Counted from the whole stretch's first letter, positions 17,640-42,022 are shown. The stretch is DNA of 63,568 nt, filler included, from Craspedostauros australis (GCA_030167865.1; 17 parts of 17 records of this genome joined end to end with filler, not necessarily neighbours in it), one strand, 5' to 3'. The notes: generated from the letters alone by a model not told the origin. Numbers and translations: made by a program.

Positions 17640-20600
17640 ATGGCACCATACAATACCACCAACGTCTCTCCAAAGCACATGCACGCAAACACCATGAGCG
17701 AAACCCCGCTGCCTCGCAACACAATGTCGGAGAGCATCATATCCTCGGAATCCATCACCAAAACAGAACAACGCAGCGACGGCGATTGCGACGAGCTGGG
17801 CGAGATTAGAAGACTTTCGAGATGCGATACCTTCAACGTGCGGCTGTGGAGAGGGATTCTGGCATTTGCGCTGCTCGCGACGGCCGCGGTCGTCACAGGA
17901 TGTACCTTCAAGGTTCGTTGGTGTCTGTTACGCTCTGCGAGGAACTGTCCAGCTGCTTTCGCAAAATAGTATAGTACTCTGCAGCCACGTCCAAATTCTC
18001 ACACCTCGTCTGTTCCCATCTATCCACTCTCATCACCCTCCTTGTTGCCTCGGACTCGATCATCGTTGACACCATGCTGCGGGTCGTCGATGTACTCTGA
18101 GAGCAGTTTCTCGACAATGAAGAAAATAGAAACTTCGAAACGGCGGTAAGTGTCATAACATAGAATACGAAGAAGAAGGGTAGAGTTGATGCAGCGTCTG
18201 CAGAATACGTGCGTGTCTGCGAAGTCATTAAGGTATTTGGGCGACCCATCACGTTGTACCCACCATGCCCATGCCCATCCCACTCACCACATCTCCCATC
18301 CTCGATGCGGATCCACGTTCGCAACTTCCGCAGTACGATCAATTTGCAATCACCATCGAAGAAGCACTTGTCGACCAACAGAATCGGCTCCGCACAGCTT
18401 ATCATGGGGTCGCGAAGCAGGTCTCCACGCAGGTGCAAACCACAGGCGGGACATGGCCTTTGGTGACAGTTTCCAACTTTGGATTCAGTGCATTGCCAGC
18501 GATGAAAATGTCGCGGACGGAGTCTACGTGGCTCATGCACGTCGTCGAGCATGACGAGGTGACCGCATGGATCAATTACACGTCGCAGGAGCACGAATCT
18601 ATGCTGCATCACGCGCACAAGAATGAACGACATGACGCGGACGATATCGATCCAGATACCTTCCATCCATTCATCACGACGACATCGCATTCCGGCTTCG
18701 TGGCGGATCGTGTGCGGGACAAGTACTTTCCAGTGTGGGAGTATGCGCCGGCTCCGCTTTCGTATACCTTGCTCAATTGGAACTTGTTGGGATCGAAGTA
18801 CCCGACACTTGACCTCGTCAGTGCGACCATGGAATTCAAGGATGAGATTGTGTACGGTCTCGCGGGACCGAGCGCCATTGAAGGTGGACTCCCATCTATC
18901 GGAGAAGACGATGGGCACAAACATGGACATGACGGCCATTCACACAGCTCTTCACACCACCGTGGTCTGTCCAATGCCGCCAAGGGGTTCCCGCACTCGA
19001 GCTTCTTCTTGGCTGTGCGTGAACGGATCGAAGATCCAGATTCGCCCGTTGTCGCAGTGATTGGCGGAGTGTTGGGATGGGACCTCGAGCTCAACGACGT
19101 ACTTCCAGCCAGCGTCAAAGGGGTCATCATCGTGATTCACAACACCTGCGGACAAGCGCATACGTACGAGATCAACGGTCTTCAAGCCGACCTTTTGGGA
19201 GAAGGCAAGTGAAAGATGTTCACGGCGCATGGTTCATTTTGGTTGTGCTGTTTTGCATGTTCCTGCCGTGATTGCGCGACTATTCCGGCCCATCTAACTT
19301 CTCCCATATCTTCGTTTGCATCACTACGGCTTTCACATGACATCATTGCAAACCCAATCCGACGCAATCTGACCGAATACTACACTGCTCATGCACATGC
19401 ACAGGAGATCTCCACGACGATACCTACAACAAGTACATGCACGAAATCGATCTATCAATGTCCACCAACAAAGCCTTCAACGAAGCGACATCGCATTGTC
19501 GCTACTCGATGAAGATGTATCCGTCCAAACGATTCGTTGAGCCGTACGAAAAGTGGACCCCCGAACTTTTCGCTTGCGTCGTCTCCGCCACATTCCTGTT
19601 CATCTTCGTGCTGTTCGTCGTGTACGATTGGCGCGTCTACCGCAGGAACGAAAATATGGTGGAAAACGCTGCCAAATCCAACGCCATCGTGGCATCGCTG
19701 TTCCCCGCAAGCATCCGAAAGCGGTTGCTCCCCGAACTTCATGACCATGCCAAGACGCCTCGCAAGAGAATCAGAAATCTGAAGACCTACTTGCATGGCG
19801 AGAGCCCCGGTGGGCCCGACACCTTTGATCAGCCGTTGGCGGACTTCTTCTTGGAAACGTCAGTGCTGTTTGCGGATATCGCCGGATTCACAGCATGGAG
19901 CTCGGTGCGAGAACCATCGCAGGTCTTTTCGCTCCTCGAGACCGTGTTTTCATCATTCGATACCATCGCCAACGCAAGGCGCGTGTTCAAAGTGGAGACA
20001 GTGGGAGATTGCTACGTTGCTGCCACCGGGATCCCGGATGCACGAAAGGATCATGCTATCGTGATGGTGCGGTTCGCTCGTGATATCCTCAGGCGAATGT
20101 CCTTCATCACCAAACAGATGGAAGCCACGCACGGCCCCGAGACGGGGGATCTGTCGTTGCGTGTCGGAATGCACTCTGGTCCAGTCACGGCGGGCGTCCT
20201 GAGAGGCGAGAGGGCTCGTTTCCAGCTGTTTGGAGACGCGGTCGATATCGCAGCATCGATGGAGCACACAGGCAAGGTTGGTCGAATTCAAGTCTCGTCA
20301 ACAACGGCCAAGATACTGAGATCGCAGGGCAAGGCTTCGTGGTTGACCAAGCGAGAGAATCTGGTTACAACTGCAGGGGAAGGGAAGATCCAAACGTAAG
20401 TACGATGATTGCCATGTGCCAGGCACTGTATGGGTACGTGCTTGAGTTGTACTGCAATTCTTTGATCATACGCATCACTCACATCAATGTGCACATCGTT
20501 CATTGCGCAACATAACCACGCGGATATTTTGACATGCGTGCGCACCGCTCCATTTTCGCAGCTACTGGATCACTGGTGTGGGGCACACTTCAGCTGACCA

Positions 20601-22431
20601 GCAACATGAGCATTCGCCGCAAAATGCGCCATGCACGGCAAACGCAGTTTCCATCATCCCGGTCATGGCTCCGGAGCAATGCCCACAGACGCCACCACGA
20701 AAATCAGCAGTGGTGCCGGCTTCAGCATTTGAGTCAATGGTGATTCAAGATGCACAAGAACCATCTCCGGTTGCCCAAAATCAAACACAACAATTCATCA
20801 TCGATGATGGGAGCTCATCTCCGGAACCCATTGCCCACGTCTCGCTCGATGCGCGAACAGAGCGCTACGTGGATTGGCATGTCAATATGCTTGTGAATCT
20901 AATGAAGGACATTGTGGCTCAGCGCGAGGCCATTCATGTCATCCAGCAACACACACCCAAAAGTAGAAGCAGTAGTGGAAGCAAGCCTGGAAGCAAGCCT
21001 GGAAGCAGAGCGGGAAGCAGAGGACCTTCGTCACCCGTCGGTCCTCGAAAGTTGAGAACGCTCGACACCCAGGCGTTGGTGAATGGAATCATGAATGGGT
21101 TCATGAACGGGAGCGCATCTTCCATGCAATCATTCACGTTCTCAACACAGTCGGTTTCATCATCCGGCTACGCAGAAGATGCCGCTGGCACAGATCCTGG
21201 CACTGGCTGTGGAAGGGCCGATTTCAATGATCGCGGATCGGACGACATGGAACTCCTCAACGATTCATGGATCCCGCTCAACGAAGTCAAGGACTTCGTT
21301 CATCTTTCCGCCTTCAATAGCCAAATCGCGAAATTGGAACGCCCGGACGATGTTGACATCTCGGAGCAAGTCACCCAGCAGCTGCGATCGTTCGTGTCAG
21401 CGATCGCTTCAATGTACAGGCGCAACGCTTTCCACAATTTCGAGCACGCTTCGCATGTCACCATGTCAGTCATCAAGCTAATGTCAAGGATCGTGGCACC
21501 AGGATCTTCCGAAATCAACAACGACCAGAAGCTGCATCCGAAGTCCCAGCGTGGGGCGAGCATCACGAAAACGGACGACGAGGAGGCCGCAGCAACCAAA
21601 CCTATCTCGTCCAGATCATCATCATTGCCAGCGCAGTTCCAACGTTCGAAATCAGACGACTCGCTCGACATCGCTGCAGCGACCATGCACGATCACACCT
21701 ACGGCATCACATCGGACCCGATGGTTCGATTCGCATGCGCATTATCCGCGCTCATACATGACGTGGATCACTGTGGTGTTCCAAACGCCCAGTTGGTCAA
21801 AGAGCAAACGCCTGCCGCACAAGTCTACGATGGCAGATCTGTCGCGGAGCAAAATTCGCTGGTGCTGGCCTGGGAATTGTTCATGTCGGATGAGTACGCT
21901 ACGTTGCGATCTTGCGTCTGCCCGACGGCGAGCGAGGCCCGCCGGTTGAGACAGCTGGTGGTGAACGCCGTCATGGCAACGGATATCGTCGACAAGGATC
22001 TGAAGAAGGCCCGCAACGAACGCTGGGACAGGGCGTTCAATAGCGACGCATTGCGCCAATCGGAGAACGATGTGACGAATCAGAAAGCAACCATCGTCAT
22101 TGAGCATCTGATGCAAGCCTCTGACGTTGCGCACACTATGCAGCACTGGCACATCTATCGCAAATGGAACGAGCTGTTCTTCAAGGAGTGCCACGCAGCA
22201 TACAAGGCCGGTCGGTCCCAAAGCAACCCGATCGACACCTGGTACAAGAGCGAGATTGGATTTTTCGACTACTACATCATTCCGCTGGCGAAGAAATTGA
22301 AAGAATGCGGCGTCTTCGGCAAGTCCAGTGACGAGTACTTGAACTACGCGCTAGCCAACCGTGCAGAATGGGAACGCCGCGGCGAGGAGATCGTAGCAGA
22401 GATGGCAAAGGAGGTGGCTGGAACAGCATAA
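17640..22431 (+). CDS. Gene A: receptor-type class III nucleotide cyclase-phosphodiesterase fusion, 5 exons, ~1347 aa
   Basis: Predicted exons 17640-17912, 18107-18145, 18334-19204, 19405-20395 and 20562-22431 sum to 4044 nt and join in frame. Two TM helices flank a sensor region. Cyclase motifs LFADIAGF, KVETVGDCY and RVGMHSGPVTAGVL; PDE motifs FHNFEHASHV, HDVDHCGVPN, ATDI and QASDVAH. Confidence 0.88.
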
Positions 22432-22578
22432 TGAAGTTTTGGAAGGGGAGAAATGGCAACAGAGAAATTGAAGTATTGTTGAGCATTTGCTGTGGTTGAA
22501 TAGAACAAGCTCCGCAATTGACTTGGACGACGAAACTCTCGATTAGGAACCGCTGCACCATTGCTGTCTGGGTTGTTG

Positions 22579-23943
22579 TCACGCCGTCTCCGAAGATATT
22601 GTTTCTGTGAGATCGTCCGCTAACGAAACGGACACGCCGTAGGAGTTCTTCTGCGCAAAGATGAACGAATTCTGATAGCCCCCATCCTTCTGGACTTTGA
22701 CGTCAATCATCGCCTTGTCCTCTCCGACATTGATTGGAGGAGCTTTGCTTATTTCTTGCTGCTTCATTGCTGGTTCTTCTTGCTGCTTCGTTGCCGGATC
22801 CTTGCGTGCCCCCGATTCTGCTTCTCTCTCGCCACTCCCTACCGGCTGGCATACCTGCACGCCTTGATACAGATTCTGCGCCCAACAATCGAACTTGATC
22901 TGCAAGGACTGCCGCGGAGGTCCGTGCCACTTGTTTTGCTTCCATCGACCGTAACTGCAGACATCCTTCGCATGGAAGATGTGGCCGCCAACGTCGAATA
23001 CCGTTTTGTTCTTGAGATGGTACTTGCCCGGCAAACAGCATGGCTTGAGCGCCAGCAAATCGATCTTGCGATTGTGATGCTGCTGTGGCCTCTTATTGAA
23101 CAGCTCGATCGCCTTGATGGACAGCGTGCCACACAAGTGAATCGCCAGGAGCAGGATGGGACCCCTGGGGATCACCTCGCCGGGTTCCTGTTTTTGTCTT
23201 TTCTTTTGCTGTTCCCGATGTGGAGACGCAGGATCCGTGTCCACAACACCACCGGGTTCACCGACGCCAACGTCTACCGGCCGCACGGCATCGTTGTTGT
23301 GCAGCAGCTTCTGCTCCAGCTGCCGGATGCTCCTGGACTTTTTGAGATCCTGCTTCGTTGTCTGCAAAGGAATCGGCCATGCGTACGGTCGCTGCGTCTT
23401 GGGATTGACGCCGTAAATGTGTTCCCAGCTGATGTGGCTGCTGTCGAAGGTCATGATCCGTTGCGCACCCGTGTGCATCGGCCATGCCTTATCGACCAGC
23501 ACGCACTTCTCGACCTTGGCCGGATCCAGCATCTCGCTCAGCAGCATGGACAGGTATCCTTTGCCGCTTGCCAAATCCACGATCAACACGCGATGATGCG
23601 GATCATCGAATCGATCCACGTATCGCACCACCAGCTCCAACACCGGCAAGGCCTCCATGCATTCCTTGACGACGCGGTCCTGCGAGAAGATGCGCTTCCA
23701 CAGCGCGGGATGATCGGGACGGTAGCGTTTGCGCCATTGCACGACAGCGTCGGCGCAGCGTCGCACAATCGTCCGATAACGAGCGCAGAGTTCGGCATTG
23801 TGCGCATACATGGCATCCAAGAACCATGCGCGGAAATCCTCGTCACTTTCCACGACGTGCGCATTGCCCTTCGGTTGGTCCTCCTTCACATCCCTCTCTC
23901 CCATGGGGCAATCGCTTGCCTGACTTGCCGCTTGCTCTGTCAT
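22579..23943 (-). CDS. Putative class I SAM-dependent methyltransferase, ~454 aa
   Basis: Motif I LIVDLASGKGYLSMLL, then VLVDK, AIHLCGTLS and LKPCC, a pattern seen in Methyltransf_32-like proteins. Likely start MTEQ at 23943, although the ORF is open to 24021. Confidence 0.72.
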   Translation of the reverse strand: MTEQAASQASDCPMGERDVKEDQPKGNAHVVESDEDFRAWFLDAMYAHNAELCARYRTIVRRCADAVVQWRKRYRPDHPALWKRIFSQDRVVKECMEALPVLELVVRYVDRFDDPHHRVLIVDLASGKGYLSMLLSEMLDPAKVEKCVLVDKAWPMHTGAQRIMTFDSSHISWEHIYGVNPKTQRPYAWPIPLQTTKQDLKKSRSIRQLEQKLLHNNDAVRPVDVGVGEPGGVVDTDPASPHREQQKKRQKQEPGEVIPRGPILLLAIHLCGTLSIKAIELFNKRPQQHHNRKIDLLALKPCCLPGKYHLKNKTVFDVGGHIFHAKDVCSYGRWKQNKWHGPPRQSLQIKFDCWAQNLYQGVQVCQPVGSGEREAESGARKDPATKQQEEPAMKQQEISKAPPINVGEDKAMIDVKVQKDGGYQNSFIFAQKNSYGVSVSLADDLTETISSETA

Positions 23944-24147
23944 GATCTTCAACGTAGCGCAACGCAACGCAACGCAAAGAATGGTGTACGTAGCTCGTGG
24001 AGTGTTGCGGAATAGTATCATACGTGCGTTGCTGGCGACGGAGGATCACATTCCGCCGCACCGAAACGACACCCATCAACAAAGATCATTTTGTGGTGTG
24101 TGACACGCGTGAATGACTGATTCCCGTGTATTATGTAGATACGTTGT

Positions 24148-25955
24148 CTAGTTCGGCATGAGTTCGTACCGGTACGAGTATTGATCCGTCGCGATGAGAT
24201 CGAAGGCTCCCACATTTTCCAACGGCAGGAAGTCGGAAGACTTCATATTCTTGGTCATATCCATGCGTTTGGATTTGATGGCGGCCTTCTTCTGACCTTG
24301 CAGCATGAGGAGCTGCTTGTTCGTGACTTCTTCGACGAGCTTGATCATGGTGGGCACCATCTTGCGGCTGAAGTTCTTCTTGGCGATGAACTCCTCGTGG
24401 CCCATGCCGGGCCCCGTCTGCATCTCCGTCATCCACACCTTCAGGTTCTCGTCGATGATGAAGTCGGCACCCATCCAGGCGAACTGCAATAGTGTAATAT
24501 TTTGAATATTGTGAAGATCAATGACGATGGAGAGGAAGTTTGTGAGACGAATGGATTGGTCCGTTGGCTGCATGGCACAACACAGCACAACACAACACAA
24601 ACGAACAAACCAAGCACAACATGCGCATACGCTAGAGTCCTCGAACGCACCTCATTCTCGGCATGTTCATCCGACTTGACGATGGATTCGTAATAGGCCG
24701 ATATCGCCGTCGATATGGCATGCTTGATCTGACTTTGAATATGCAGCATGGGATCCGCGCGCTGCGGCGAATCGGCTGCGAAGAGATCCGGGCGTTCTTG
24801 CGTCACATATCGTTGCAGTTCCGGCACCCAATCCTCGAACGATGTGACGGCTTCAATCTTGGGCTCCTTCTTCTCGTCCTCCAACTGCTTCAGCGTCTTT
24901 GATTTGTTGTCATTCTGTCCCACGTTGGTGAGATGCTTGTGCGTGCTGGAAAAGTCTGACTCGTCGTAGATGTTGTGGCTGACGCGCAGGTACCCGCCGC
25001 CGTAGTAGGCCAGCATCGGACGGATCGAGGCGAAGAGGACGAAGCAGCGCAGATCGAACTTGTAGCGGCGGAACGTGAGCTCGTGCTGGATGTACTCCTG
25101 GATCATGTGGCTGGGCATGTTGCCTTGCTGCTTGAGCTCCTTGATCAGATTCATCAAGGGCTCGCTGTTGGGACCTATCATGGTGATGCCCTTGCCGTTG
25201 TCCTTCTTGAGGAATTTGAGGACCCACGGTTTGGACGTGTCGACATTCTTGAGGAAGTTGGCCGTGTCCGTCTCATCGTAGAGCACGTAGCCTTCCGGGA
25301 TGAAGGTCTTCGCGTGCGGCTGATCCCGCGCATGCATGCGGGCGTAGCGGCGCAGTCCCTTGAGCAGCATGGTCTTGCTGCTCATGTTGTGCTCGGCGCT
25401 GAAATGATTGGCGCGCTGCCAGTAATGCAGCTCCTGCGGCGGCAGCTTCTTCTTGCTTTGCACGAACAGCATGCCGGCCTCCAGCGGATCCTTCGTGCGC
25501 TGCCAGCCCAGCAATTCGAACGCCCTGGCGATGCCGGCCGATGTGGTGCCATAGAAGGTGTGCGGCAGCGCGGTGATTTCGCCATCTCTCACCTCCTCCT
25601 TGTCCAGATCGTTGTCCGGCTTCTTCTGTTCGCTGTCTGCCTTGTTGCGCACGACTTGACTCGCTGCGTTCGCAGGCAGTGCCGGCACGGGTCTCTTGAT
25701 CGCTGGATTGGAGGCTCCTGTCGACTGCGGCTCCGCGAAGCTGCGATCGCGCGAGATGAGATGGGAATGGTACAGCTGACCCTCGGCAAAAGCCAACCGC
25801 TGGTATAGCACGACGCAGTAGACGCACAGCGATGCCGACAGAACGATCAGAAAGATCATGCCGAAGCTCTTCGAAAGCTTCGCGCGCAACGATGGCCTGT
25901 TGCCTTGCATGCTGGTTAACGTGCGTCGCATGCCAAACTGATTCCGGTGGTTCAT
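24148..25955 (-). CDS. Tubulin-tyrosine ligase-like (ATP-grasp) protein with N-terminal membrane anchor, 2 exons, ~546 aa
   Basis: Exons 25955-24651 and 24483-24148 with a GT-AG intron. Motifs ANHF..SK, FIPEGYVL, WVLK..GKGI, IQEYI, KFDLRCFVL, HLTN and GADFIIDENLKVWMTEMQTGP. TM segment MIFLIVLSASLCVYCVVLY. Confidence 0.83.
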
Positions 25956-28653
25956 GGTGCAGTTGTTTGAGTGATGATGTGATGATGGGACGATAGGCTG
26001 GACTGTGGAGACTCTTGGATGGATCTTGATGGTGGTGCAGCAAGGGCTACTCTTCGTGCTCGTACGATTCAATGCCCAGTTTATGCAGGATGTGGGATGC
26101 CGAATACAGGATGCAGGATGTAGCATGCCATGAAGTGAAATGAGATGAGATGAGATCAGGTGAGATGAAGAACTGTTTTCGCCTCTGTGAGCATTGCTGG
26201 ATTCTCCCACCAACAAGCCATTCAAATTTGAATTTCGCTCTCGTCATTTTTGCGAGGTTGTTCGAAACGATTGCTCAATTCGGTATCTAAAATCCAATCG
26301 TGCCAATTTATTCCCACACAAAGGAAAGTAGTATTGGACGATCTAGAATATCTGAACCATAACGCTTCGACAACGGCAACGTTGATTGCTGCGAACAACA
26401 TCAATCGTCAACGCGACGAGCTGAGGAGGCAGATCGATGACGATCCGCAGATTTGGCGCCAACCGAAGAAAATGACACCCGCATGAATCGACCTCCTTCA
26501 TTCTTCGTCTGGTTGACGCACTGCATCCACGCATGCAATCGAGGGAGGCATAAGAGCGAGTCATCGCAAGCATCATATGTGGTTCGCCTGTGGCACAAAG
26601 CACCATCATGAAAGCGATCGCCGCGCTGTGGTACGACTACAATACGAGTCCTCTCTCATTGGATGCTCTGACACAACTCGATTCGTGTCGGCAAATGACA
26701 CCATGGATTGCAACACTCCATGTCCACGAGTGCTCTTGCAAAAGTCCACATCACAATGCACGGCGTCAAATCCCACCGAGGAAGCAGCACGAGCGTCGAA
26801 GATCTGCGGCAGTCTTCCTCGCTTCAACCTCATTGCCGTCCGCCGCAACTCCGAGCTTTGACTGAGGTCACCTGCTTGAGCGGACCGAAGTTTCAGTGCC
26901 GCGCCGACATCGTGTGCGCTGGTTTCGAGCCGTTGTTGCTTACCGCATGGACTGGCGTTGCGATGTGGGAAAGTGTTGTACGTTCGGTATTACACCATGG
27001 AGTACTTGAAGCCATGCCCACCCGATCGGTTGGATGGCCTTCCCGCTGGTTTGCTGATCGAACGATGGGGCGAGTGATTGTTTGGTTGACCTCTCAAATG
27101 GTGCTATCAACACTCATTGATGGGTGCCCTGTGCGTGGAAACAGGAGTCCGCATCCACCCAAACCGGGGCTTTGCGCCCTTCACTCTCTTGGCATGACAA
27201 TCCATGGATCTGCGTGCGCTCTGTGTCGATCATGTGGTGAAGCCACAAGGCCCAAGCTCGCTTCCTCTGTGTGCGGCATCCGCTACCATGCGTGCATTTT
27301 GTGCAGGACCATGACAAATGCAGACTTGTGAATGGGGCGCAGATCGTCAAGAACACACAAACCAAATTATCCAAGCCACAAGCAGCTTGGTCGTACTTGT
27401 GCGACCTTTTCGTACTCATTCTCGGAGGCGCCATGTGCGTCACATCATCGTTGACCTCCACAGCGCCATCCTTCTTCGCGCCACAAGGAACGGCTTTGAT
27501 GGCTGCAACCCACGATGATGCAACAACACAACAAAACACCTCTCGCCCCCAGACATGCACACAGACACACACAGACAGAGAGAGAGTATGTGTGTGTATG
27601 TGTGTGTTCACTGCGGAGCCGCAACGTCGAAGCAAGAGAAAGACACGAGTACGAGCAAATCAAACCAAACATTGGGTTCGCGGGCGTCGACTGAAGGGCC
27701 CCACCATAAGTTCTTGAAGTTGAATAGGGGGTTGAATGAAACAAGCGGATTTGATAGAAGGTTCGGATTTTGACACCTAAAACATGGTTCGAATGTGTCT
27801 TGTACTTGTGAACAAGACAGAACAGTCCACGTGAGGTGCCGCTCTCTTCGGGCGCTTTGCTGAGCCATCGTGTACCGACACCGCGAGAACAACGAAACAC
27901 CCACTTCTCGTCACATTTTGGCTTGGTTTCGAAACATCGGTCACGACGTCATTGCGCGATGGCGAAACGTCGCTCCAACGTTTCCCTTCCTCTCTGTGAT
28001 CTTGGAAACAAGAAAGCGGCAGGTTCATCCATGATCGAGGGAGACGATCCTCGTACCATACATACGTGTAGCTGGGCGATGCAGGGTTGAGGGTGACCCA
28101 AGAACATCAAACTCTGATGTCGGTTTGCTGTGCCAACGTCTTTTGTTGCCATCCCAAGCGTGACAAGACACTGGCAGCACCGAATACATGCGCGGAAGTT
28201 TCATCATCAGTCATTTGCCATGGGTCATCTTGTCTGCCCACCTTCTTCGCGCCGAAGGGAACGCTAGGAGAGAGCAAGGAGAGAAACGCACAGCTTGCAC
28301 GATTACGAATACGTGCAAGGCTGCGATACGGTTGCTCATTTTGTCTCACCAGCAAAAACACGCCCATGTATGCCGAACGAAGAGCAAACAAACAAACAAA
28401 CATCTGTGGTGAGCACGTATCCCAACTCGTCCTCGTGTGGTCCACAGCGCACAAACTTTGCGGTACGAGCGCCAAATGTCAATGGTTCATCCTTTCCAGC
28501 CATAAGTTTAACCCAGCATCCAACTCACCAAACCCATCCAACTCACCAAATCACCAAATCGCAACCATCATCACCATCACCACCAACAACACACAATAAC
28601 GCACCAACAACATCACCAACAGCGCACACACAACGCAATTCAGCACAGTGATC

Positions 28654-31325: not shown

Positions 31326-33312
31326 GGATTTGGAAGCGACAATCATTCACGATGTACCGTGCGCCGTTGTCGATGTTGCAAGCAGGAAGAGCGTTGAGGC
31401 CTCTGAACCAAGAACTTCAACTCATTGAATATTAGTATCATATATGCATGTTTGTCTAGCAAAACACATGTCACACGGGGCATAACCATTTTACGCATTA
31501 TTATTAGGCATGCATACGTAGTTATCTACTCCGCTCTTACTCCCTCGCAGTTGCGCTCCAATGTGTGGTTGCAATGCGCGCTCCAATTTGCGCAAGTCTT
31601 GTCCCCCCTCCGCATCTGTGGCGGCCGAATCGCAGAGAGGCATGCAATCCCAACCCGCAGCTTCCCTCGTGCTTTCGTCGTGACCTTCGCTGCTGCTTTG
31701 GTCGACTCTGCTCGTAACACTCACCCCACCAAGTGTGCTCGCAAGAGTGATCCTCGGGGAGGTTCTTTTGTCCTGATTGAAGTGCCCAACACTATGGCGA
31801 ACGGAGTGAACACGCCCAAGAAGCTAGCACGTGGCGATCGCACGCTGGGTATGGTATTGGCCCTACGATGGTGTCATCACAAACTGACGTCGATCTTGTG
31901 ATCGAAATTGATATTCCAACAGGGTGATGGCAAAGACTTTGGATATCACAGGGAACGGCCCAAGAACCCCAAACGATGGAGTGCAGGACCTCAGAAACGC
32001 CAACAAAGTCTGCTTCCGCGGAACAAAAACGCGCAGTTGCCAGTCTTGAAGATGAAATTCCTTGGAACACTGATGCTGGGACTGTGCGCCAAGAACAATG
32101 ATTGATTCTGTGAGTGTGAAGGCGACAGCACTATTGGCTCGTGCCTTGGCCACATGCACGTCCGAAGGGCATGATCGTACAGGACCACTCTTGTTGGCCT
32201 CGCTGTTGTCCCTCTTGGCATTCTGCTTGTCGTTGTACTTGTATGCATGCCTTCCCCATTGGAAGGAACAACCGTGTTGCTTGTATGCAGAGAGTGTGTG
32301 GAGTTGTGTGATTTAGACTGGTGCCGCATGCCACGAAACAGCAGCGTTCGTGCCTCCGCGGTACCACGCCATCATGATCCTCGCTCGCACAAGTGCACAA
32401 GCGCCCAAACGCGTCAACCAACCATCATCATTCCTGAACAGAACGAGACGAAAGTCGGTAGTTGGCAATTTGGCAATTGCATACCAACTCTCTCAGGTTC
32501 GCAGGCCTGCTCCGACTTGTACACGTGTTCGATGGGAAGCAAGAGAGAAACCGCAACAACCCACGCCACCAGGGATCTTTCGATTTCTTGTTCGCCGCTT
32601 CATTGATTGTCTTGGTGCGTTGTCGTGTGAACATGGACGCTGACGTCTTGCCGGAGACAATCACGTCGCGGCGGTTTTACAAACTATCGCGGTTCGTATA
32701 AGTTCGCGGACGTTTCGTACCGGGCGGCTTCGATGGCGGCATCAAAATGCACGATTAGACTTCCTTCTGCTCCAAAGAAGATGTGATCGTGTGACGAGAC
32801 CGGTGTGCGCAGAATGTGATTTCTTGTTGGTCGTTGAAGTTCACACAAGTGACCTTCTCTTGTTCGTTTTGGAATGCACCAATGTCAGAAAATCTCTCAC
32901 ATTGTGATGCAATGCCATCGCACAGAAAAGATAGGAAGGCCACGTGCGCGATTGCTGTTGCCGTTCGCTGTCCACCGACGTTGTGTTGCACACAATCACA
33001 AGCTCCATGGACACTTACATGTACGCAACCCAGCCACAGCCACAACCGCAACCACATTTTCCGCGCTATCAAGAACATGGCGCTCGAAACCGCCTCCTCA
33101 GCAAGTGCCAACTGATGATTGTTCGGTTGCCGCCAAAGAGCTTTTTCGTGGAAGCCCACGGTTCGGCAGGCAACCAGCAACCAGCAACCAGGGCCCATCG
33201 CACCCAGAGAGGCCAGGGATACTCATAAAAAACTCACTTGTCTGAGCAACATCTTCTTAAGCCTCCACCCAACACGAGCATCAAGGCGCGAGCGGACGTA
33301 GTCTACTTTGGC

Positions 33313-33366
33313 ACCAACGCCAACGCCAACGCCAACGCCAACGCCAACGCCAACGCCAACACCAAC
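33313..33366 (+). repeat. (GCCAAC)7 hexanucleotide microsatellite flanked by ACCAAC
   Basis: Read directly from the sequence, ~95 nt upstream of the gene C ATG. Confidence 0.9.
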
Positions 33367-33459: not shown

Positions 33460-34742
33460 ATGTCAGGAGCGCCATCAGAAACTGCGCCGCGAGATGACGG
33501 TGACGCCCACAGCAGTGCTGCCTCATCGGGCGCAGCTTCGTCTGGAGAAGTTCAATCATCCCATGGCACCGAAACCCGAGGTTCATCGTCGATGAACAGC
33601 GGGCAAAGCTCCAAGCACGCCGAAAACAACGCAGAGGAGGACATTTCGGCACGGCTGGTCGGCAGCGAGAGTCGCCAGGTGTTCTGGTCCCGCATTACTT
33701 TCCTCATAGTCCTGCTCTTCGCGACTGCAGGCAGCGCAGTCGGCGTGTACATGATCTCCAGAGACGACGAAAAGAGTAGCTTCGAGGTCCGGGTAAGTTG
33801 CAATGGATCATACTCTGAATGCAGGATTGTGCGTCCGCTGCGGTTGTGTTGTCGCATTGTTTGTGACTCATGTGTGCGCACTCACTAGTACAACCGCACA
33901 CAAGTGTCCAACGCATCCAGCGCTCGATGATCTTACACTTCGCCAATCCATCTTTCTGCTGTGTCGCGCACTGTCCGTATCTTCCATTCCATTCCAATGT
34001 CCATTCCCATTATCGTATTCGCCACCGCCAACAATGACTTGATCAGTTCAAGGACTTTGCGAACCAAATCGTCGAAGTGTCCCAGATCAATGCCAACGAC
34101 ATCTTTGGCGTCTTCGAAAGGATGAGCTTGCACATGACCGTCTACGCGGAGGCAAGAGGGCAGGAATGGCCATTTGTCGTTGTGCCCAGCATCGAAGCCC
34201 AGGGGCAGCAAGCGATCGAAGCCACTGGTGCCATCACGGTTGCCGTGACAATCATCGTCACTGACGACAACAAGGAGGAGTTCGAGAACTTCACCGTCCA
34301 AACTCAAGATTGGATTCAGAAGGAGCTTGACTTCGTAAATTCGACTGCAGAAGTCAGCATCATCCCCAAGATCTGGTATCCGGGAAACAATGGCACAATT
34401 GTGTTCCCCGAGAACCAAGGCATCTACATTCCATCTGTGTATATGTCTCCAATCGAGACCCTCCACACTGTCGTGAACTACGATGCTTACATTCTCCCAT
34501 ACTTCAACAGCGTCTTCCAAGAAGTCAACAGGACGCACGAGCCAGCTCTTTCCGAAGTGCGCAACTACGGGAGGGAGATCAAGTCAGAGCTTGATTGGCC
34601 CAGGAGCTTCATGGCTGTCCCGATTTTCGATACAGCAAGGAAAGAAAACAGAAAACTTGTGGGCCAGCTGACAGCCCAAATGCCTTGGCACAACTACTTC
34701 CTCAACCTCGTCCCTGAAGACATCGACGGCATCTACATGGTC
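33460..34742 (+). CDS. Gene C: tandem paralogue of cyclase gene B, N-terminal and sensor part (3' truncated)
   Basis: Exons 33460-33792 and 34047-34742. Same intron position as B (KSSFE.R|FKDFA.QI..VSQINA.DIF.VFE.MS) and a closely similar sensor domain (WP.V..P..EAQ, SPIETL..VVNYD, MPW..YFL.LVPE.ID.IY). Confidence 0.85.
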
Positions 34743-35590
34743 NNNNNNNNNNNNNNNNNNNNNNNNNNNNNNNNNNNNNNNNNNNNTTAATTAATTAANN
34801 NNNNNNNNNNNNNNNNNNNNNNNNNNNNNNNNNNNNNNNNNNTACCCACCAACCCACAACTCTGGATTTCGACCACTGATCCACAGCCCAGATGAAGCAT
34901 CATCATCACCATGCCTACTGCTACCGCGCAATCCTCAACATCTCTTCGCACCCAACCGCCTTGCCCACGCGAAATGTGAGTCTGTCGATCAAGGGCACGA
35001 CTGGACAGCAAGCTGAAGCACGACTGGTGATTCCCAACACAATTTGTCCTTCTGCGTCCGCATGCCTTTCGTTTCTAGTCGTAGATTAATGCGAAAAATA
35101 TAAACTTTTTAACTATAAGGTCCAGGCATCTAATATTTCACACATATACCCTCCACAACATAATAGGATGATATCGGCCCTCAAATTAAAAATCGGCACG
35201 AATGTACTATCGTATCCTGAATGGGGTCCTAAGCGTCAAAGACTATACTATTGTGCATGTCTGGTCGCCACAGTGTGGTCACTGAATCCGTCTTCACTCC
35301 CTCCGCAGCTCACAATCAACGCCATCACACAAGCCCTTCACAAGTGGGAACTGAGAGATCCAATGGCCTCACCCAACGCGGATCTCGAACACGACGCCCA
35401 AGGTCAAGGTAGAACCAATGCACACAGTACATCTGGCACCTTCACATTTTTCCTTCCGATTAACCTCCCAAAGTGGCATCGCTTCAATTATTCCCGGATT
35501 CATTCATCCACCTTCACAGTTACGCACGCTGCGCTCACTTTGTGCCACCGTAACTGCAACCCATAGTACCACACTCGCAACCTCACAAAA

Positions 35591-36437
35591 ATGGATTCCA
35601 CAAACAAGGACAACCAAACAACATCACCAGCGACGATGACACCACCACCACCACCGCCACCGCCATCACCATCGGTGCAAGGCACTCGCATCACGAGAGG
35701 AAGTCGAAGGATCAGCCTCTCCTCACCGATTCACGAGCGACGACGACCAAGACGCAGCTGCTCCTCCACGAAGTCAGCGCCAACGGTATCAGAAGAAGCG
35801 GTGCGCAAAGGCGTTGGCCCACATCCGACGCCGCAATCGCCGCCCACCAACAACGCAACGAACGACAACCACAAGATCGCGACCGTTGGCCCTAAGATCG
35901 TGTCGTTCTCCACATCCGTCCCCTCACACAAAGCGTCACAGTTGGATCGGTCCAACCATCTGGTGTCGCCCATCAGCGCCCGCAGCGTCACGGGTGTTGG
36001 CAGTATCGCCTTCGCACCATTGACTCCAGGGACAGCGCGGCCGCTCACGCAGATAATGACTGCAGGCGAGTTCAGTCAACATGGCGCGGACAATGATGAC
36101 GATGATGGTGTTGCTTCCCTTCCTCAACGACCCGCATCATCCTCGTCGATGCTGCATGTTGGCGCTCCACCGTTGAATCAAGATGCAGCGAAACAAACCT
36201 CATCGCACACTCTATCCTTGGCAGCCGGATCCAATGATTCGCTTGGCATGTCGTCGCACACTTTTGCGAGAGAGTCGCAGGGCAACACTTACCATGACGG
36301 CCATCTCGATGGCGACGATGATGACGACAGTGGCAGCGATGTTGGCAGTGATGTAGAGAGTGGCGGCCATCATTGCCACCATTGCAATCATGATGCATCT
36401 CACGAGATGCATTCTCATGCTATCCGCACACCCGCCG

Positions 36438-36468
<31 letters not shown>

Positions 36469-39400
36469 CGCCTGTCATCATAGCAGCACCAGCACCTGCC
36501 ACCGATGCAATCACAAATCAGGAAGAGCGCAAGAGAGAAAGCAAAGGAGATGGCTCCGATTCAATCGACGCAAATCAAAGCAGCAGAGGGAAAAGAGAGC
36601 AACAGCATCACCGCCAGCCATTGCTCAAAGCCAGAGTTCGGATGAGGAACACAATCCTACCCAGATCACCGTCCGCGATGTCTTCACGCCCAAAAGCCTT
36701 CCGTTGAGATTGCGCAGAGCGATGATGGTCTTGTGCTCTATGGTCTTCATCATCGTCCCAGTTATCCTCTTCCACTTGGATAGCGAGCATCATCAGGAAG
36801 TGTTTGAATCATCGTATGAGCACTTGGCGTTCGCCGCCTCTCACGGCATCCAAAAGCAATGGGATGGCATCCAGCGCACGTTGGCGACACAGAGCCAATT
36901 CATAGCGGAGTCGCCCAGGTTGAGCTCCGACAGCAACGCGACTGACGGTCTGACTGCTAACCAGTCATCACCGTCGATGGTACTACCCGCTCAGACAATC
37001 TTGCATTTCGACACCTTGGCTGCTGCCGAAATCACATCAACGCAAGGCGTTATTTTTGTGGGATATCATCCGCTCTTCCATTCCACGGACGACGTGCAAC
37101 AGTGGGAATCCTACATCTCGCAGGCGCATGTACGGGGCTGGTACGACCAGACGGTGCAACAGCAACCATCTTTCGTCACGAGACGCGATCGCACGATCTT
37201 AAAGGCACGATCCAGTCCACACCTCAACATCGACCTGGCTGATCCACCCACGAACTTGTACGAGTACTCCGCCAAAGTCGAGCCATGGCCGATGGGCGCG
37301 ATTACCAGCGCCTCGCCATCCTCGCAAACCATCAAGGAGGAGGCGTCGCAGTATGCACTTCCGCTGTGGCAGAGCATGCCAATTCACTCCTGGCTCGTCA
37401 ATCACGATTTGCTGTCGCAGTCGTCACAAGATCGGCGCACGCTGGTACAGGATCTCGTGATCGAGCAGCAGCGCACCGTCATTGATCCCATCCCATCCAT
37501 CGACAGCGACGAGTCGACGCTTTCACCAACAGATCGCATCTTCATGAAGGATTACCATGCCAGCTTCTTGAGAGGCTACTACGGCACGAATAACGTGCAG
37601 TACGATGACGACCCCATGTCATGGGTTTACCATCCCGTCGTCGAGCAGACATCAACGGGCACTGTGGAGAACGAAGTCGTTGCTATCATCTCGATGCTGA
37701 TCGATTGGAAGCAGATGCTGAAACTCCAATCCTCTCATGCAGAGCATTCTTCCTCCCATGATGATCATGACGAGGATCATGACGAAGATCATGACGACGA
37801 GCATGACGAGGATCACGACGAGGATCATGACGATGAGCATGACGAGGATCATGACGAGGATCACGACGATGAGCATGACGATGAGCATGACGAGGATCAC
37901 GACGAAGATCACGACGAAGATCACGACGAGAATCATGACGAGGATCATGACGATGAGCATGATGATCACGACGATGATCATGGTGATCATGATGATCACA
38001 ACCATGATCTCCATCGTCTGCTCTTCGTCGTTGAATGCGCATGTGGGCCCACATTCTCCATCGAATACGACATAGACACGTGGACGCCAAACTTCCTGGG
38101 TCACATCGACGCCCATGATCCATCCATGGAAGGCAAGTGGAAGACCGTCGTGCACCTAGGAGATTTGCACCAACCAACGAACGGCGTAGAGAAGCACTGT
38201 CCGTACACTGTCAACATATACCCATCCGAGGCTATGCACGAAGGTCTGGAGTCTCACTTTTCGTACATCCTACAGCTGGCAGGGTTGATCATCTTCACAG
38301 TCTTGCTGGGGTTGCTACACGACTTCATCACACGCCGGCAACTGGCCAACATCATGACTGCCGGACAGGCTCATGAGGCCCTGGTGACCCAAATGTTCCC
38401 GAAGCACGTCCTTCAACGGATGAGGGCGAGAGGTTACAACCGGCATTGTACCGACGTGACGAACAACAGCAGGCACGGCAAAAGCAGGGCGTCATCCTCG
38501 TTGATGTCAATGGTTGGGGAGGAGGAAGCCAACAGGCTCGGCACTTCCCTTCACAAAATGAGGCGAGAACTCTCTTCGTTCCTGGACGGCGTCAGCGATC
38601 ACTACGGCAACGGCAGGGCTTCCCGAAGCACAAGCGCCATCATGCACGAAGTATTGGCAAGTCCCATCGCGGAACTGTTCACCAACTGCACCGTCTTCTT
38701 TGCCGAGATCGACGGATTCGCCGGGTGGTGCTCACAGCGCGAACCGGAGAAGATCATATCCCTGCTGGAATCCATCTTCCATATCATGGACAGGCTGGCG
38801 AAGCGTCGGCAGGTGTTCAAGGTGGAGACCATCGGAGATTGCTACATGGCGGTGACGGGAATACCCGACCTACAGAGCGATCACGCTGTCCGTATGGCGC
38901 GTTTCGCCCGAGATTGCATCAACGCGGTCCACGAACGCCTGCGGCAGTTAGAACTGGTCTTCGGCCCAGATACGGGCGATCTGAGGCTGCGAATCGGAAT
39001 GCACAGCGGGCCAGTCACGGCTGGCGTGCTGCAGGGCGAGAAGGCGCGATTCCAACTCTTCGGCGACACGGTCAATACGGCAAGCCGGATGGAATCCACC
39101 GGCGCCACGAATCGCATCCAAATATCGCAAGCCACTGCGGATCTCATCATCGCCGCTGGTAAGAAGAGCTGGGTGAAAGATCGCGTCAAGACGATCAGCG
39201 CCAAGGGCAAGGGCATCGTGAACACATTCTGGCTGACAATACCCAAACGAATCGAAAGCTCAGCATCACAAACGACCAGCCAGTCGCAATCGAAGTATGC
39301 AGATGCTGTCGACAGCGACGATGATGAGCTGTACGTCGCCGAGAAGCTCGACGGTGCTTCAGAAGAACAAAGGAACGATGAAATGCTCACCAAGTGGTCT

Positions 39401-42022
39401 CGGAACCTCAAGCAAAACCGCCTCATTGATTGGGTCACTAGTATCCTAAAATCCCATCTGGAAGAATTAGTGGCGGAGCGCAACCCGAGCGATGCAACGT
39501 CGCGAACATCGACATCGTCGTCATCATCCTCTCTGCCATCACCGAAAGCAGCACAATCAAGCCAAGAAGCAACAAAGAAAGCCACCGTCCTTGATGAGTA
39601 TCGGGAGGTAATCGGACTGACACACTCGTCGTCGCCGTCGTCGCGATCGCCATTGCCATTATCATCATCATCATCTGGTGTGACGAAGGATCGGATCAAG
39701 ACAGAACCACCATCTCGCGATCATCAGCACAAAGTCAAAACCAAGTTGCCATCGCAAGTCCGCCAACAACTCCGGGAGTTCGTCGCGTCCATCTCCGATC
39801 GATACCCCAAGCACAACTTCCACGGCTTCGAACACGCAAGTCACGTCACCACGGCTGCCACCAAACTCCTCAGGCAAGTCGGCGACATGAAGCAGGGAAC
39901 CAGAGACGGAAGGAATTTATTCAGCGATGATGCCGATGGGTTGCACCCCTCGTGGACGCAATCACTCCATTCTGTGACCGCAAGCAGTGCAATCGCAAAG
40001 TTCGCTGTTGTTTTCGCATGCGTGGTCCACAACGTCGATCACAGCGGCATCTCAAATGCACAACTGGCCATTCAATCGCCGGCAATGAGCCAAGCTTTCA
40101 ACGGCCGATGCATCGCAGAGCAGAACTCGTTCCAAGTTACATGGAACCTGCTGGCGCAGGATCAATTTGAAGAACTCCGCAGCTGCATCTTTCCAAACCA
40201 GCAAGCGGAGGAACAGTTCCGGCAATTCCTGGTCAACTTGGTTCTTGCCACAGATCTGTTCGATCCTGAACTCGCTCAAATCAGGCAGAACCGGTGGGAC
40301 AAGGCATTCCCCAGCGCAAGTGGATCCGGAGATACATCCCCTCACGGCTCGGTGGATCCACACTTCGCGAGGAATGGTGACACACGCCAGACGAAACTCG
40401 ATGTCGACACGCAAACGACGGCCCTCCTGGAGCACATCATGCAGATCGCCAAGACCAGCCACGCCATGCAGCACTGGAGCGTCTACAGCAAGTGGAACGA
40501 GCGGTCATTCCGTGAGACGTTCCGGGCGTTCCAGGCGGGCAGAGCTACGGCAGATCCAGCCATCGACTGGCACAACAATGAGCTCGCTTTCTTCGACGAC
40601 TACGTCATACCGCTGACAAAGCAGCTATCACGCTGTCACGTACTCCAAGGAGTGTCCGTGCAGTTCTTGGAGACTGCACGTCAGAACCGGCAGATCTGGT
40701 TATTGAGTGGGGAGGAAACCGTGCGAGAAATGCACGAACTCTGTCAACAGAAGGCCAAGGTGAATGTCGGCGGTTTTACTGACGAAGAGATTCGGTCCAT
40801 GTCAGCCAAGCAGCTCGAGTACAGTCTCACGGTGCTGATTCGCAAAGGCAAGGCATTTGGCACGCTCAAGGCCTGGGACAAGGCAGGGATTCGCAATGCT
40901 GCGCAGTCGTGGCTGGACGCCATCGATATCTTTGAAAAATGCTCCGCTTCCGCACATCTTGAGAACAAGTCCATCATCTTCCCGGTGTACTCAGGATTGT
41001 TTGCATACATTTGCGGGGGGAAGATCCTGCAGGAGACGGACCTTTCCTTCGAGACCAACCTGGCTGCACGCTTCGTCCGAGATTCTCAACGCATCGTGCG
41101 CGAAGATCCAATCCATTGCTGCCGTGCGTTGGCGATGCAAACTGCCGTGCTCTCATTCCAAGGCAAATATGAGGACGCTCTCGAGAACTCCGAACTGCTG
41201 GAAGAAATCTACGAACCGTCGCAGCATTCGGCAGACATCGTCAACAACTACGGTATCGATCATGCCATGATCTGCATCGGGTATCGTGGAGTTTGGTTGC
41301 ACCTGATGGGACGGGAAGAAGCAGCGATCAAGGCCTCGAATTTTGCGTTGGATACTCTCCTTCCCGTCATCGGCCCAACGAACATTCTGAACATCTTCCA
41401 TGTGATCCTGCCTGCCATCCAAGTGCTTCAGCACCACGGCCGCCTTCCAGATCTGTTGAACATCTTCCAAACCAACGTCGTGGACAACCAACGAAGGTAC
41501 AAGATCAAGACTCCTGTGGTGCCTCTCATCAAGCCAACCCTGTATTTGCTACAAGTCCTATCCGATCCTGCCCAATTTTCGCAGGAGGGCATCGATTGGA
41601 TCTTGGACGAGAGCAACGGCAAGATCCCAGCTTTTCTCGACAGTATTCTCACCAGGTTTTACTGGTCACCGAGCACCATTTGCACAGAGCTATGCCTCCG
41701 GGTTGCACAAAAGCTGCACCGCGAACAGTCGCAGACTGAAAAGATCGAGGTGCTGCTGCGCAGAGCCCGCAGCTTCTCTGAGGCTGCCATGTGCTTTATC
41801 ATGGGAGATTGCAAGGACACGGGCAAAAAGGTTTTGAGAAATCCAGCTGCGTGGAAGTTCCACAAGGAGATCATCGACGAGGTGAACACATTTTGCGCAA
41901 GCATCGGTGCGGAATGCGGGATCCTGGATGCTGCGGGTCATGCGGATGGCAATACTGGCGACGTCACGCCAAGATCGCAAACCTTGCAGACGAGCCTTGG
42001 AGTGATTTGGTTGGCTGATTGA
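35591..42022 (+). CDS. Gene D: receptor-type cyclase + degenerate PDE + TPR-like tail, single ORF, 2143 aa
   Basis: Long disordered N-terminus, TM, sensor region with a His/Asp repeat, second TM. Cyclase motifs FFAEIDGF, KVETIGDCY, FGDTVNTASRMES and AKGKG. PDE-like motifs FHGFEHASHV, HNVDHSGISN, ATDL and QIAKTSH. About 420-aa helical tail. Confidence 0.9.
37757..38014 (+). repeat. Coding ~12-nt tandem repeat encoding (HDED/HDDE)n
   Basis: CATGACGAGGAT-like units translate as HDDHDEDHDEDHDDEHDEDH...HNHDLH. Confidence 0.92.

Follow-up and report, generated by a model that had tools for sequence, protein, structure and literature searches.

Reciprocal catalytic degeneration in two receptor guanylyl cyclase/phosphodiesterase paralogues of the diatom Craspedostauros australis and a possible split one-site cyclase

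The active sites of class III cyclases lie at a dimer interface, with one chain supplying the two metal-binding Asp residues and the other the Asn/Arg pair and Lys. Receptor guanylyl cyclase/phosphodiesterase (GC/PDE) genes, which respond to sex pheromones, have undergone a large expansion in the raphid pennate diatoms, and to our knowledge the reason for fusing opposing activities in a single chain is not known. A split arrangement of the catalytic residues is described for C. elegans ODR-1/DAF-11, an obligate heterodimer whose one site depends on essential residues from each monomer (PMC5225109). According to two papers on Seminavis robusta, the GC/PDE proteins of this diatom have a topology of short N-terminus, transmembrane (TM) segment, ectodomain, TM segment, GC and PDE (PMC4726125, PMC8027222), with 17 GC-domain genes responding to pheromone (PMC8027222), and the published member is described as having catalytic sites that are all conserved save the pyrophosphate-binding site (Moeys 2016, Bilcke 2021). 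Our literature search turned up no account of a diatom GC/PDE protein that is degenerate, inactive or heteromeric, none of members degenerate in complementary ways, and no biochemically characterised member of the family.

The window, that is the whole stretch of 63,568 nucleotides analysed, consists of contigs of the diatom Craspedostauros australis strung together by artificial linkers, and contains four receptor cyclase paralogues (A, B, C, and D), all on the plus strand. Their place in the GC/PDE receptor family is evident from the TM-ectodomain-TM-GC-PDE layout and from homology to Seminavis members, with Seminavis robusta matches at 38–55% identity carrying both PF00211 and PF00233. TM segments were picked by eye as hydrophobic stretches, and a Pfam search of the ectodomains gave no significant match (for B, CHASE at E = 0.088). 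The features of gene A are:

17694–22431, plus strand: gene A, receptor GC/PDE, from open reading frames with tblastn of relative P0265 as exon guide
17694–~17912, plus strand: putative exon of A (ATG, TM1)
~18331–19204, plus strand: putative exon of A (ectodomain)
19205–19404, plus strand: putative intron of A, which would be GC-AG
19405–20395, plus strand: putative exon of A (TM2, linker, cyclase)
19857–20395, plus strand: A cyclase domain, alpha/C1-like, from Pfam, motif positions and family alignment
20396–20561, plus strand: intron between the cyclase and PDE exons of A, GTAAGT..CAG, splice sites read in the sequence
20562–22431, plus strand: putative exon of A (linker, PDE, TAA stop)
21430–22306, plus strand: A PDE domain, HNFEH at 21433, HDVDH at 21757 and ASDVAH at 22117, all metal ligands intact

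The cyclase and PDE of A occupy two reading frames, joined via the 20396–20561 intron. The cyclase matches PF00211 (2.4e-41, 141.8 bits, cut-off 21.9) and has both metal Asp residues, in ADIAGF at 19872 and VGDCY at 20001. In FGDAVDIAASMEH (20229–20267), Asn is replaced by Asp and Arg by Ser, and in TAGEG (20370–20384) both Lys are gone, with Ala and Glu in their places, leaving D, S, A, and E where the transition-state Asn/Arg pair and the phosphate-binding Lys would stand. TAGEG is real and not an exon-end artefact, as the spliced reading restores the family T-Y-W after the degenerate Lys motif. The residue pattern of A (DEDRQDSAE) is unique among 388 cyclase rows. Relative to its canonical sister P0265, A is 71% identical in the cyclase and 70.5% in the PDE, with 7 of 13 residues differing in the N/R motif, and across 253 canonical relatives its cyclase averages 57.9% identity (z -1.2). 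Judged by these values, the cyclase fold is otherwise conserved and the domain is not decaying. The PDE matches PF00233 (4.1e-28, 99.1 bits), carries the His, His, Asp, and Asp of class I PDEs, and is off consensus at 2 of 75 conserved columns (z -0.3). The terminal branch of the A cyclase is 4.3 times that of its sister, compared with only 1.6 times for the PDE.

RNA evidence came from one small run, X1, compared with the A/B/C contig, with spliced contigs showing that the run holds RNA. The X1 contigs cover 21627–22937, at the 3′ end of A, with 0 differences, and none lies over the A cyclase, gene B, or gene C. Sequencing error is an unlikely source of the substitutions, which are several, clustered, in-frame point changes with no frameshifts in motifs otherwise conserved, the X1 coverage lying outside the substituted codons. 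Pseudogenes are ruled out by the intact frames, spanning 1100–2143 codons in the window genes, and by the transcription of A.

Gene D lies beyond a contig joint:

34743–34842, no strand: artificial linker between contigs, N44 + TTAATTAATTAA + N44, present 16 times in identical form in the window; A/B/C and D are separate records
35591–42022, plus strand: gene D, a single 2143-aa open reading frame
38672–39239, plus strand: D cyclase domain, beta/C2-like, from motifs, family alignment and AC5 alignment
39818–40637, plus strand: D pseudo-PDE domain, 15 of 75 conserved columns deviating
40750–42019, plus strand: D C-terminal extension, common to the Stauroneis protein P0008

Because the contigs were joined artificially, the adjacency of A and D is without value as evidence of linkage. 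D comprises a long N-terminal region, an ectodomain with a His/Asp repeat, a TM segment, the cyclase, the degenerate PDE, and a 430-aa C-terminal tail, for which a Pfam search gave no significant match (TPR_12, E = 0.071). In the cyclase, which matches PF00211 (3.4e-47, 160.8 bits), AEIDGF (38702–38719) places Glu at the first metal Asp and Asp at +2, with the second Asp, Asn, Arg, and both Lys intact (FGDTVNTASRMES at 39059, AKGKG at 39200). Its terminal branch is 2.3 times that of its sister, compared with 2.0 times for B; the domain evolves at the usual rate of this genome, which fits a working N/R/K face. The PDE of D still matches the PF00233 profile (9.7e-19, 68.4 bits), but reads HN for HD (40028–40033) and Lys for the last metal Asp (40451–40453), so that N and K stand at both Asp ligands and two of the four metal ligands, which we take to be H164/H200/D201/D318, are lost. 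This domain is an extreme outlier in mean identity (z -5.4) and has a terminal branch of 1.77 where the 95th percentile is 0.70; by these measures it is globally diverged.

The remaining genes share the contig of A:

28654–31325, plus strand: gene B, receptor cyclase without a PDE, from open reading frames, Pfam and tblastn; exon 1 28654–29097, exon 2 ~29362–31325
30651–31203, plus strand: B cyclase domain, fully canonical, AKGKG at 31170
33460–34742, plus strand: gene C, N-terminal part of a B paralogue (50% identity), cut by the contig end, with the catalytic part outside the window

B sits 6 kb downstream of A on the same contig and strand, and carries both metal Asp residues, the Asn/Arg pair, and Lys. 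Of PF00211 and PF00233 it matches PF00211 alone (2.5e-40, 138.5 bits), with no PDE remnant found 3′ of the gene. The initial annotation had described A as retaining both Asp residues and an intact PDE whilst losing N, R, and K, D as retaining N, R, and K with AEIDGF and a PDE stripped of metal ligands, and B as a complete cyclase without a PDE, and had placed A and D on different contigs. Each of these descriptions is borne out, with every motif found in its given place, both Lys of A lost, and the reciprocal pattern of A and D confirmed by motif positions, Pfam, and family alignments.

The relatives surveyed comprise 468 cyclase domains (388 rows in one alignment) and 300 PDE domains (302 rows). 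Of the 468 cyclase domains, 457 keep Asn, 452 keep Arg, and 462 keep the first Asp, whilst the second Asp and Glu are invariant (468/468), other degenerate members included. Glu at the first Asp and Asp at +2 each occur once among the 468, in the same domain (P0227 domain 2). Guanylyl-type base recognition relies on a Glu, plus a Cys in animal GCs; this Glu occurs throughout the 468 domains as well as in A, B, and D, with the second place being Gln in 466 of 468, not Cys. Fully canonical residues are found in 333 of 388 cyclase rows, and all four metal ligands in 287 of 302 PDE rows. Catalytic substitutions occur in ~20 full-length cyclase domains, plus ~10 truncated or incompletely aligned fragments, with N/R/K losses commoner than Asp losses. 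The patterns of A and D are unique or nearly so among the 468 cyclase and 300 PDE domains, and the residue tabulation called for at the outset, made for the window and its relatives, marks their losses as rare. The suggestion that the family had divided into synthesis-only, degradation-only, and regulatory receptors fails for the family as a whole, given the predominance of canonical cyclase rows. The sisters of A and D are canonical in both domains (P0265 for A, support 0.93; P0008 for D, support 0.74) and no departure from the canonical residues is seen in the closest relatives, which are transcripts of Stauroneis constricta, so both losses are recent and arose in this lineage alone. Each of the three window cyclases departs from the family consensus at 6–8 of 68 conserved columns (family median 1), suggesting that the genome may simply tolerate more change.

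Both rare domain types recur in P0227, an ENA metagenome ORF in a cluster of 3 near-identical ORFs, with two tandem cyclase domains and no PDE seen. Domain 1, like A, keeps both Asp residues, has Ala in place of N and Lys in place of R, and is missing both catalytic Lys; domain 2, like D, has E-x-D, and is the only other such domain in the family. The tail of domain 2 is out of frame; when it is shifted by one base, 58 of its 79 positions are compatible with the C-terminal half of a canonical domain (130 control offsets: mean 15.6, maximum 24). Its C-terminal catalytic residues, deduced from the shifted frame rather than read directly, are N or S; H, L, P or R; K or R; and K, N, R or S. D and P0227 domain 2 are 51% identical; among about 387, D stands at rank 151 for P0227 domain 2, which itself stands at rank 282 for D, and A ranks 383 against domain 1; as neither is close to its matching domain, the likeness is convergent. 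A search for P0227 DNA by linker and domain 2 gave 167 pattern stretches, none confirmed, and the E-x-D motif DNA pattern found 22 loci in metagenome contigs, 0 of 22 being cyclases. The only further tandem-cyclase relatives found were a pair of gene models from Nitzschia, each with two canonical domains, which are probably merged neighbours. The tandem fusion of an A-like and a D-like domain supports an A:D pairing, a weak point of this argument being its origin in a single P0227 cluster.

We tentatively propose, as a reading with a real chance of being correct yet short of probable, that A and D complement each other as the two halves of a heteromeric receptor guanylyl cyclase with one site. 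The complete site would join the Asp pair of A to the N, R, K, K, and base-recognition residues of D, and the mirror pseudo-site would join the E-x-D of D to the D, S, A, and E of A. In this hypothetical dimer, all catalytic losses (5/5: the first Asp of D and N, R, K, and K of A) fall in the pseudo-site, with 0 of 9 residues changed in the other, and alignment to AC5 (8sl3) places the residues lost from A on the C2-type face and the D-to-E change of D on the C1-type face. A would bind D, neither homodimer would make cGMP, and the complex would hold one live PDE (A) and one dead PDE (D). The latter may have a role of its own and may still bind cGMP, as its HN is the natural equivalent of the substrate-trapping mutation D201N of PDE4D. 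The split-enzyme idea of the initial annotation therefore stands in its residue reading and, by the AC5 alignment, its C1/C2 (alpha/beta) logic, with the A:D heterodimer remaining a proposal and the PDE asymmetry equally explained by specialisation, since PDE sites are self-contained and a reciprocal PDE pattern needs no heterodimer. A and D share 36% identity, with unrelated ectodomains and linkers of different length. The D-to-E change is conservative, keeping the carboxylate, and E-x-D may be a working variant, given that the AC5 C1 motif ADIEGF, which belongs to an active metal site, likewise has an acid at +2; D may thus be a self-sufficient homodimer. An improbable extension of the proposal is an obligate asymmetric A:D receptor with one cyclase site and one PDE site, in which the dead site and the D PDE would be kept as sensors, the PDE trapping cGMP uncleaved to feed back on the live cyclase or PDE and the E-x-D pseudo-site binding nucleotide or metal allosterically, with diatoms having independently evolved an alpha/beta design as both split genes and a tandem fusion (P0227). 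On this extension, mixtures of degenerate and canonical chains would multiply the repertoire for pheromone or environment sensing.

About equally likely as the heterodimer, and likewise only possible, is independent specialisation with no heteromer, under which A would be a ligand-regulated PDE, D a ligand-regulated cyclase, and B a plain cyclase. The dead cyclase of A would then be a dimerisation and signal-transmission scaffold that may still bind GTP, the E-x-D of D would still bind metal, and its PDE would be a pseudo-enzyme that is decaying or has been kept to bind cGMP or for structural reasons. The fully conserved PDE of A and the outlying PDE of D fit this well, a cyclase dimer between membrane and PDE would be retained for structure alone, and the family-wide invariance of the second Asp and Glu suggests that their retention in A may be structural; the acid tolerated at +2 in AC5 C1 and the sporadic single losses elsewhere in the family point the same way. 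Specialisation leaves unexplained, however, why the losses in A take in all four residues of one face yet spare the other, why the sole catalytic change of the D cyclase falls on the opposite face, and why E-x-D is found elsewhere only beside an A-like domain, whilst the frequency of Asp at the first position implies that D-to-E is rarely tolerated in ordinary members. On the first of these points, a rough estimate favours the complementary reading ~3-fold over specialisation.

Alternatively, A could use any canonical paralogue, for example B, as an alpha-like subunit, giving heterodimers with one site, with D separate and active alone or with other partners. We consider this rather unlikely, although neither site of an A homodimer has N, R, or K, a canonical gene lies close by on its own contig, paralogues are many in related diatoms (dozens of Seminavis robusta entries are among the matches), and N/R/K losses are the commoner kind in the family. 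With a canonical partner, the N/R/K face of A would complete a second working site and be expected under selection, yet its four residues are gone, and neither the complementary change in D nor the P0227 fusion finds any use. Neutral decay, with the A cyclase and the D PDE as young pseudo-domains in a large, fast-turnover family and their complementarity coincidental, seems very improbable. The changes are lineage-specific with no conserved orthologous degenerate form, branches are long for all window genes, and the A cyclase branch exceeds that of its PDE in proportion to the sister's, but the reading frames are intact, A is transcribed at its 3′ end, its cyclase lies inside the family identity range, and the dead D PDE retains 60 of 75 conserved columns.

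A mirror-image pair of this kind offers a direct handle on why opposing activities were fused, and predicts which chains to combine for activity and which residues could be mutated without effect. If the A:D pairing is true, diatoms have reinvented the asymmetric one-site cyclase of animal sGC, adenylyl cyclases, and nematode ODR-1/DAF-11, and receptor heteromerisation would be a source of signalling diversity in a major group of marine primary producers. If it is false, A and D still provide clear-cut natural cases of working receptors that retain a pseudo-cyclase and a pseudo-PDE.

Amongst known systems, sGC alpha1/beta1 and the C1/C2 halves of mammalian membrane adenylyl cyclases likewise have the Asp pair on one half, Asn/Arg/Lys on the other, and a degenerate second site, with sGC beta1 keeping the second Asp without the first, as D does. 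In our D-AC5 alignment, the N and R places are occupied in C1 by T and H, and both Asp places in C2 by S. A difference is that sGC is a soluble haem protein, and that the adenylyl cyclases have 12 TM segments and both halves within a single chain. P0227 resembles the proposed pair in its A-like domain 1 and D-like E-x-D domain 2, but is a single chain in which no PDE is seen and is not orthologous to A or D. The best PDB match of the D PDE is 2pw3_A, which reads HNVDH, as does D, with N at the same position of the HD motif; this PDE4D2 D201N mutant (PDB 2PW3) was crystallised with uncleaved cAMP (PMC13095499), whereas in the D PDE Lys replaces the last metal Asp as well and 13 more positions deviate. 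The Seminavis robusta GC/PDE receptors (Moeys 2016, Bilcke 2021) share the family and architecture of the genes described here. Like ODR-1/DAF-11, A and D are two distant receptor-type paralogues with split catalytic residues, their heterodimer being proposed here from sequence; in contrast to the nematode chains, which have a kinase-homology domain and no PDE, A and D each carry a PDE, one live and one dead.

The cyclase domain of gene A keeps both metal-binding Asp residues, with its Asn/Arg pair replaced by Asp/Ser and its two Lys residues by Ala and Glu, and in that of gene D the sole catalytic change is Glu for the first Asp. The metal ligands of the phosphodiesterase (PDE) domain are intact in A, and in D have changed from HD to HN, with the last metal Asp replaced by Lys. 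Gene B encodes a cyclase without a PDE, and no PDE remnant was found on searching 3′ of its cyclase. These results bear out the initial annotation, which had claimed reciprocal catalytic losses in A and D, with every motif it quoted found in place by a motif check on the window sequence. Residues were assigned to the faces of the cyclase dimer by alignment to the solved structure of adenylyl cyclase 5 (8sl3); the first Asp of the family falls on that of ADIEGF in C1, and the Asn/Arg and Lys motifs fall on those of C2. In adenylyl cyclase 5, C1 carries Thr and His where the Asn/Arg pair would be, and C2 carries Ser in place of both Asp residues.

The 63.6 kb window consists of 20 pieces and is not one molecule, with 16 identical artificial linkers (each N44, TTAATTAATTAA, N44) and some simple runs of N at the joints, and the A and D finding covers two pieces, 14502-34742 and 34843-48891. 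Comparison of the window with itself by tblastn reveals one receptor family of four members, all on the plus strand, with Pfam matches to PF00211 in A, B, and D, and to PF00233 in A and D. Spliceosomal introns are present in the window genes, the best relatives of which belong to the raphid pennate diatoms Stauroneis constricta, Nitzschia, Seminavis, Epithemia, and Cylindrotheca.

Receptor cyclase features of the window
17694-22431, plus strand: gene A, four inferred exons
20396-20561, plus strand: intron between the cyclase and PDE exons of A (GTAAGT..AG)
28654-31325, plus strand: gene B, ending after the cyclase
33460-34742, plus strand: gene C, N-terminal part only, truncated where its contig stops
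35591-42022, plus strand: gene D, single 2143-codon ORF

Splicing out 20396-20561 restores the family-conserved T-Y-W in the frame of A. The sole in-frame splice from its ectodomain exon to its TM2 exon (19205-19404) would have GC in place of GT as its donor (GCAAGT), as judged from the frame and from homology to P0265, a Stauroneis constricta transcript. Contigs from one small public RNA run span 21627-22937 of A with 0 differences, the substituted cyclase codons lying outside this cover, and the PDE exon and 3′ end of A are transcribed. A further contig of this run skips 24484-24650, an intron with CT..AC ends in the minus-strand neighbour at 24441-26243, and the run thus holds RNA of this organism. 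That neighbour belongs to the tubulin-tyrosine-ligase family (PF03133, 6.9e-23) and lies between A and B with a Methyltransf_32 gene (22579-24045, minus strand, 2.7e-08). Upstream of gene C, a hexanucleotide microsatellite (33290-33345) encodes (Ala-Asn)n in one frame; an RNA contig of depth ~2390 touches this region only at the repeat, so that its depth is uninformative on gene C. Two paralogous minus-strand ORFs (43658-45550 and 47263-48237), neither with a Pfam match, combine a TM segment with a stretch rich in Ser and Pro, and have a Cys-containing C-terminal motif in common.

Relatives were gathered from large protein collections and a scan of cluster representatives, and their domains excised with phmmer and aligned for tabulation of the catalytic columns. 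Only cyclase matches spanning more than 100 profile positions and PDE matches spanning at least 150 were kept, and P0227, a metagenome ORF, was represented once, its two near-identical copies being set aside. The full canonical cyclase pattern is present in 333 of 388 rows (385 relatives with A, B, and D), in which the patterns of A and of D occur once each. Among 468 family cyclase domains the first Asp is conserved in 462, the Asn in 457, and the Arg in 452. All four PDE metal ligands are kept in 287 of 302 rows, with the ligand pattern of D found in D alone. Some members of the family (P0009, P0010) have two PDE domains after a single cyclase, and several Nitzschia models contain two or three whole guanylyl cyclase (GC)/PDE modules, probably merged tandem genes.

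The nearest relative of A, P0265, is canonical in both domains (71% identity over the cyclase and 70.5% over the PDE), as is that of D, P0008, from the same Stauroneis constricta transcriptome (62.6% and 43%), which has a C-terminal tail in common with D. In FastTree trees of 382 cyclase and 292 PDE rows, with shorter rows left out, both recover A and P0265 as sisters (support 0.93 and 0.79), and that of the cyclases does so for D and P0008 (0.74). As these sisters are canonical in both domains, both degenerations are young and specific to this lineage, and no conserved alpha-like or beta-like subfamily was found among the relatives sampled. Judged by its alignment, the cyclase of A is not eroded as a whole, with a mean identity of 57.9% to 253 canonical relatives (z -1.2). 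Of 68 columns under strong conservation it deviates at 7, one of which is only the end of the exon and three of which lie in the Asn/Arg motif, where 7 of 13 residues differ from P0265 between identical flanks. Relative to its sister, A has a terminal branch 4.3 times as long for the cyclase and 1.6 times as long for the PDE, compared with cyclase ratios of 2.0 for B and 2.3 for D, so that the extra change in A is modest and local. The PDE of D is an outlier by every sequence measure, namely mean identity (38.9%, z -5.4), conserved columns (deviating at 15 of 75; family median 1, 95th percentile 7.6), and terminal branch (1.77, against a 95th percentile of 0.70).

The best PDB match of the D PDE is 2pw3_A, with HNVDH in both; 2pw3 is described as a crystal structure of PDE4D D201N with its cAMP uncleaved (PMC13095499). 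Alignment places Glu in D (~40560-40600; A, 22200-22260) where PDE4D has its “invariant” purine-binding Gln (SQVGF), a Glu that at least 93% of family members apparently share and that might be relevant to the choice between cGMP and cAMP. The predicted ectodomain of D contains a tandem repeat of 12 bases (GATCATGACGAG; 37763-38009, 16.7 copies, 86% matches) encoding ~90 alternating His, Asp, and Glu residues, a tract that could be metal-binding. A 430-residue extension after the PDE of D (40750-42019), with a weak TPR hint (E = 0.071), is also present in P0008, and most of the family lacks it.

Glu in place of the first Asp together with Asp at +2, as in the AEIDGF of D, occurs in only one of the 468 family domains besides D, the second cyclase domain of P0227. 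This 1109-residue ORF, present as three near-identical copies on three contigs of ENA metagenome assemblies, is a receptor with two tandem cyclase domains, the first of which keeps both Asp residues, has Asn replaced by Ala and Arg by Lys, and is without both Lys residues, a loss that by its residues is of the same kind as that in A. Past the first half of domain 2, the ORF looks like intron read-through and then runs out of frame, and we infer rather than read the C-terminal half, including the four key places. When the frame is moved by one base, 58 of 79 positions over this half could encode the residue of the closest canonical relative (130 control offsets: mean 15.6, maximum 24), with N/S, H/L/P/R, K/R, and K/N/R/S possible at the key places. 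D shares 51% identity with domain 2, ranking 151 from domain 2 and 282 from D among ~387, and A ranks 383 against domain 1; as neither is close to its counterpart, the likeness is convergent. A natural fusion of A-like and D-like domains would be expected if such domains act as partners. Further examples were sought beyond the P0227 cluster and none were found.

Were A and D to form a dimer, all five of their five catalytic losses would fall in one of the two pseudo-symmetric sites, with 0 of 9 residues changed in the other, and A would have lost all four residues of one face because the shared site was dead and those residues were free to change. We place such a heteromer first among four readings, as a tentative proposal that may well prove wrong, this ordering being our rough estimate of likelihood and not a computed test. 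Against it, the Glu of D retains a carboxylate, an acid at +2 is found in the working site of adenylyl cyclase 5 C1, A and D, paralogues with 36% identity, are only distantly related and lie on contigs whose neighbouring position is artificial, the asymmetry of the PDEs is explicable without a dimer, divergence is unusually high in all three window cyclases, and the argument from fusion comes from the single P0227 cluster.

Independent specialisation of A and D comes a close second in our ordering, about as likely as the heteromer and equally doubtful. The pairing of A with canonical partners is unlikely, as the Asn/Arg/Lys face of A would still complete a working site in such a dimer, and neutral decay appears very improbable.

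Bifunctional GC/PDE receptors of diatoms are already published. One receptor of Seminavis robusta is reported to be induced by sex pheromone, and its catalytic sites are described as conserved, the pyrophosphate-binding site alone excepted (PMC4726125); eight GC/PDE genes are reported as pheromone-responsive in both mating types (PMC8027222), and a homologue as regulated in Pseudo-nitzschia (PMC5485032). Our literature search for degenerate, inactive, or heteromeric diatom members found nothing, and the new part here would be the appearance of the known asymmetric one-site cyclase principle in this diatom family of PDE-carrying receptors. The pattern of the putative A:D heteromer, with losses confined to one of two pseudo-symmetric sites, is the same as that of sGC, of adenylyl cyclase C1/C2, and, as reported, of the nematode receptor pair ODR-1/DAF-11 (PMC5225109).
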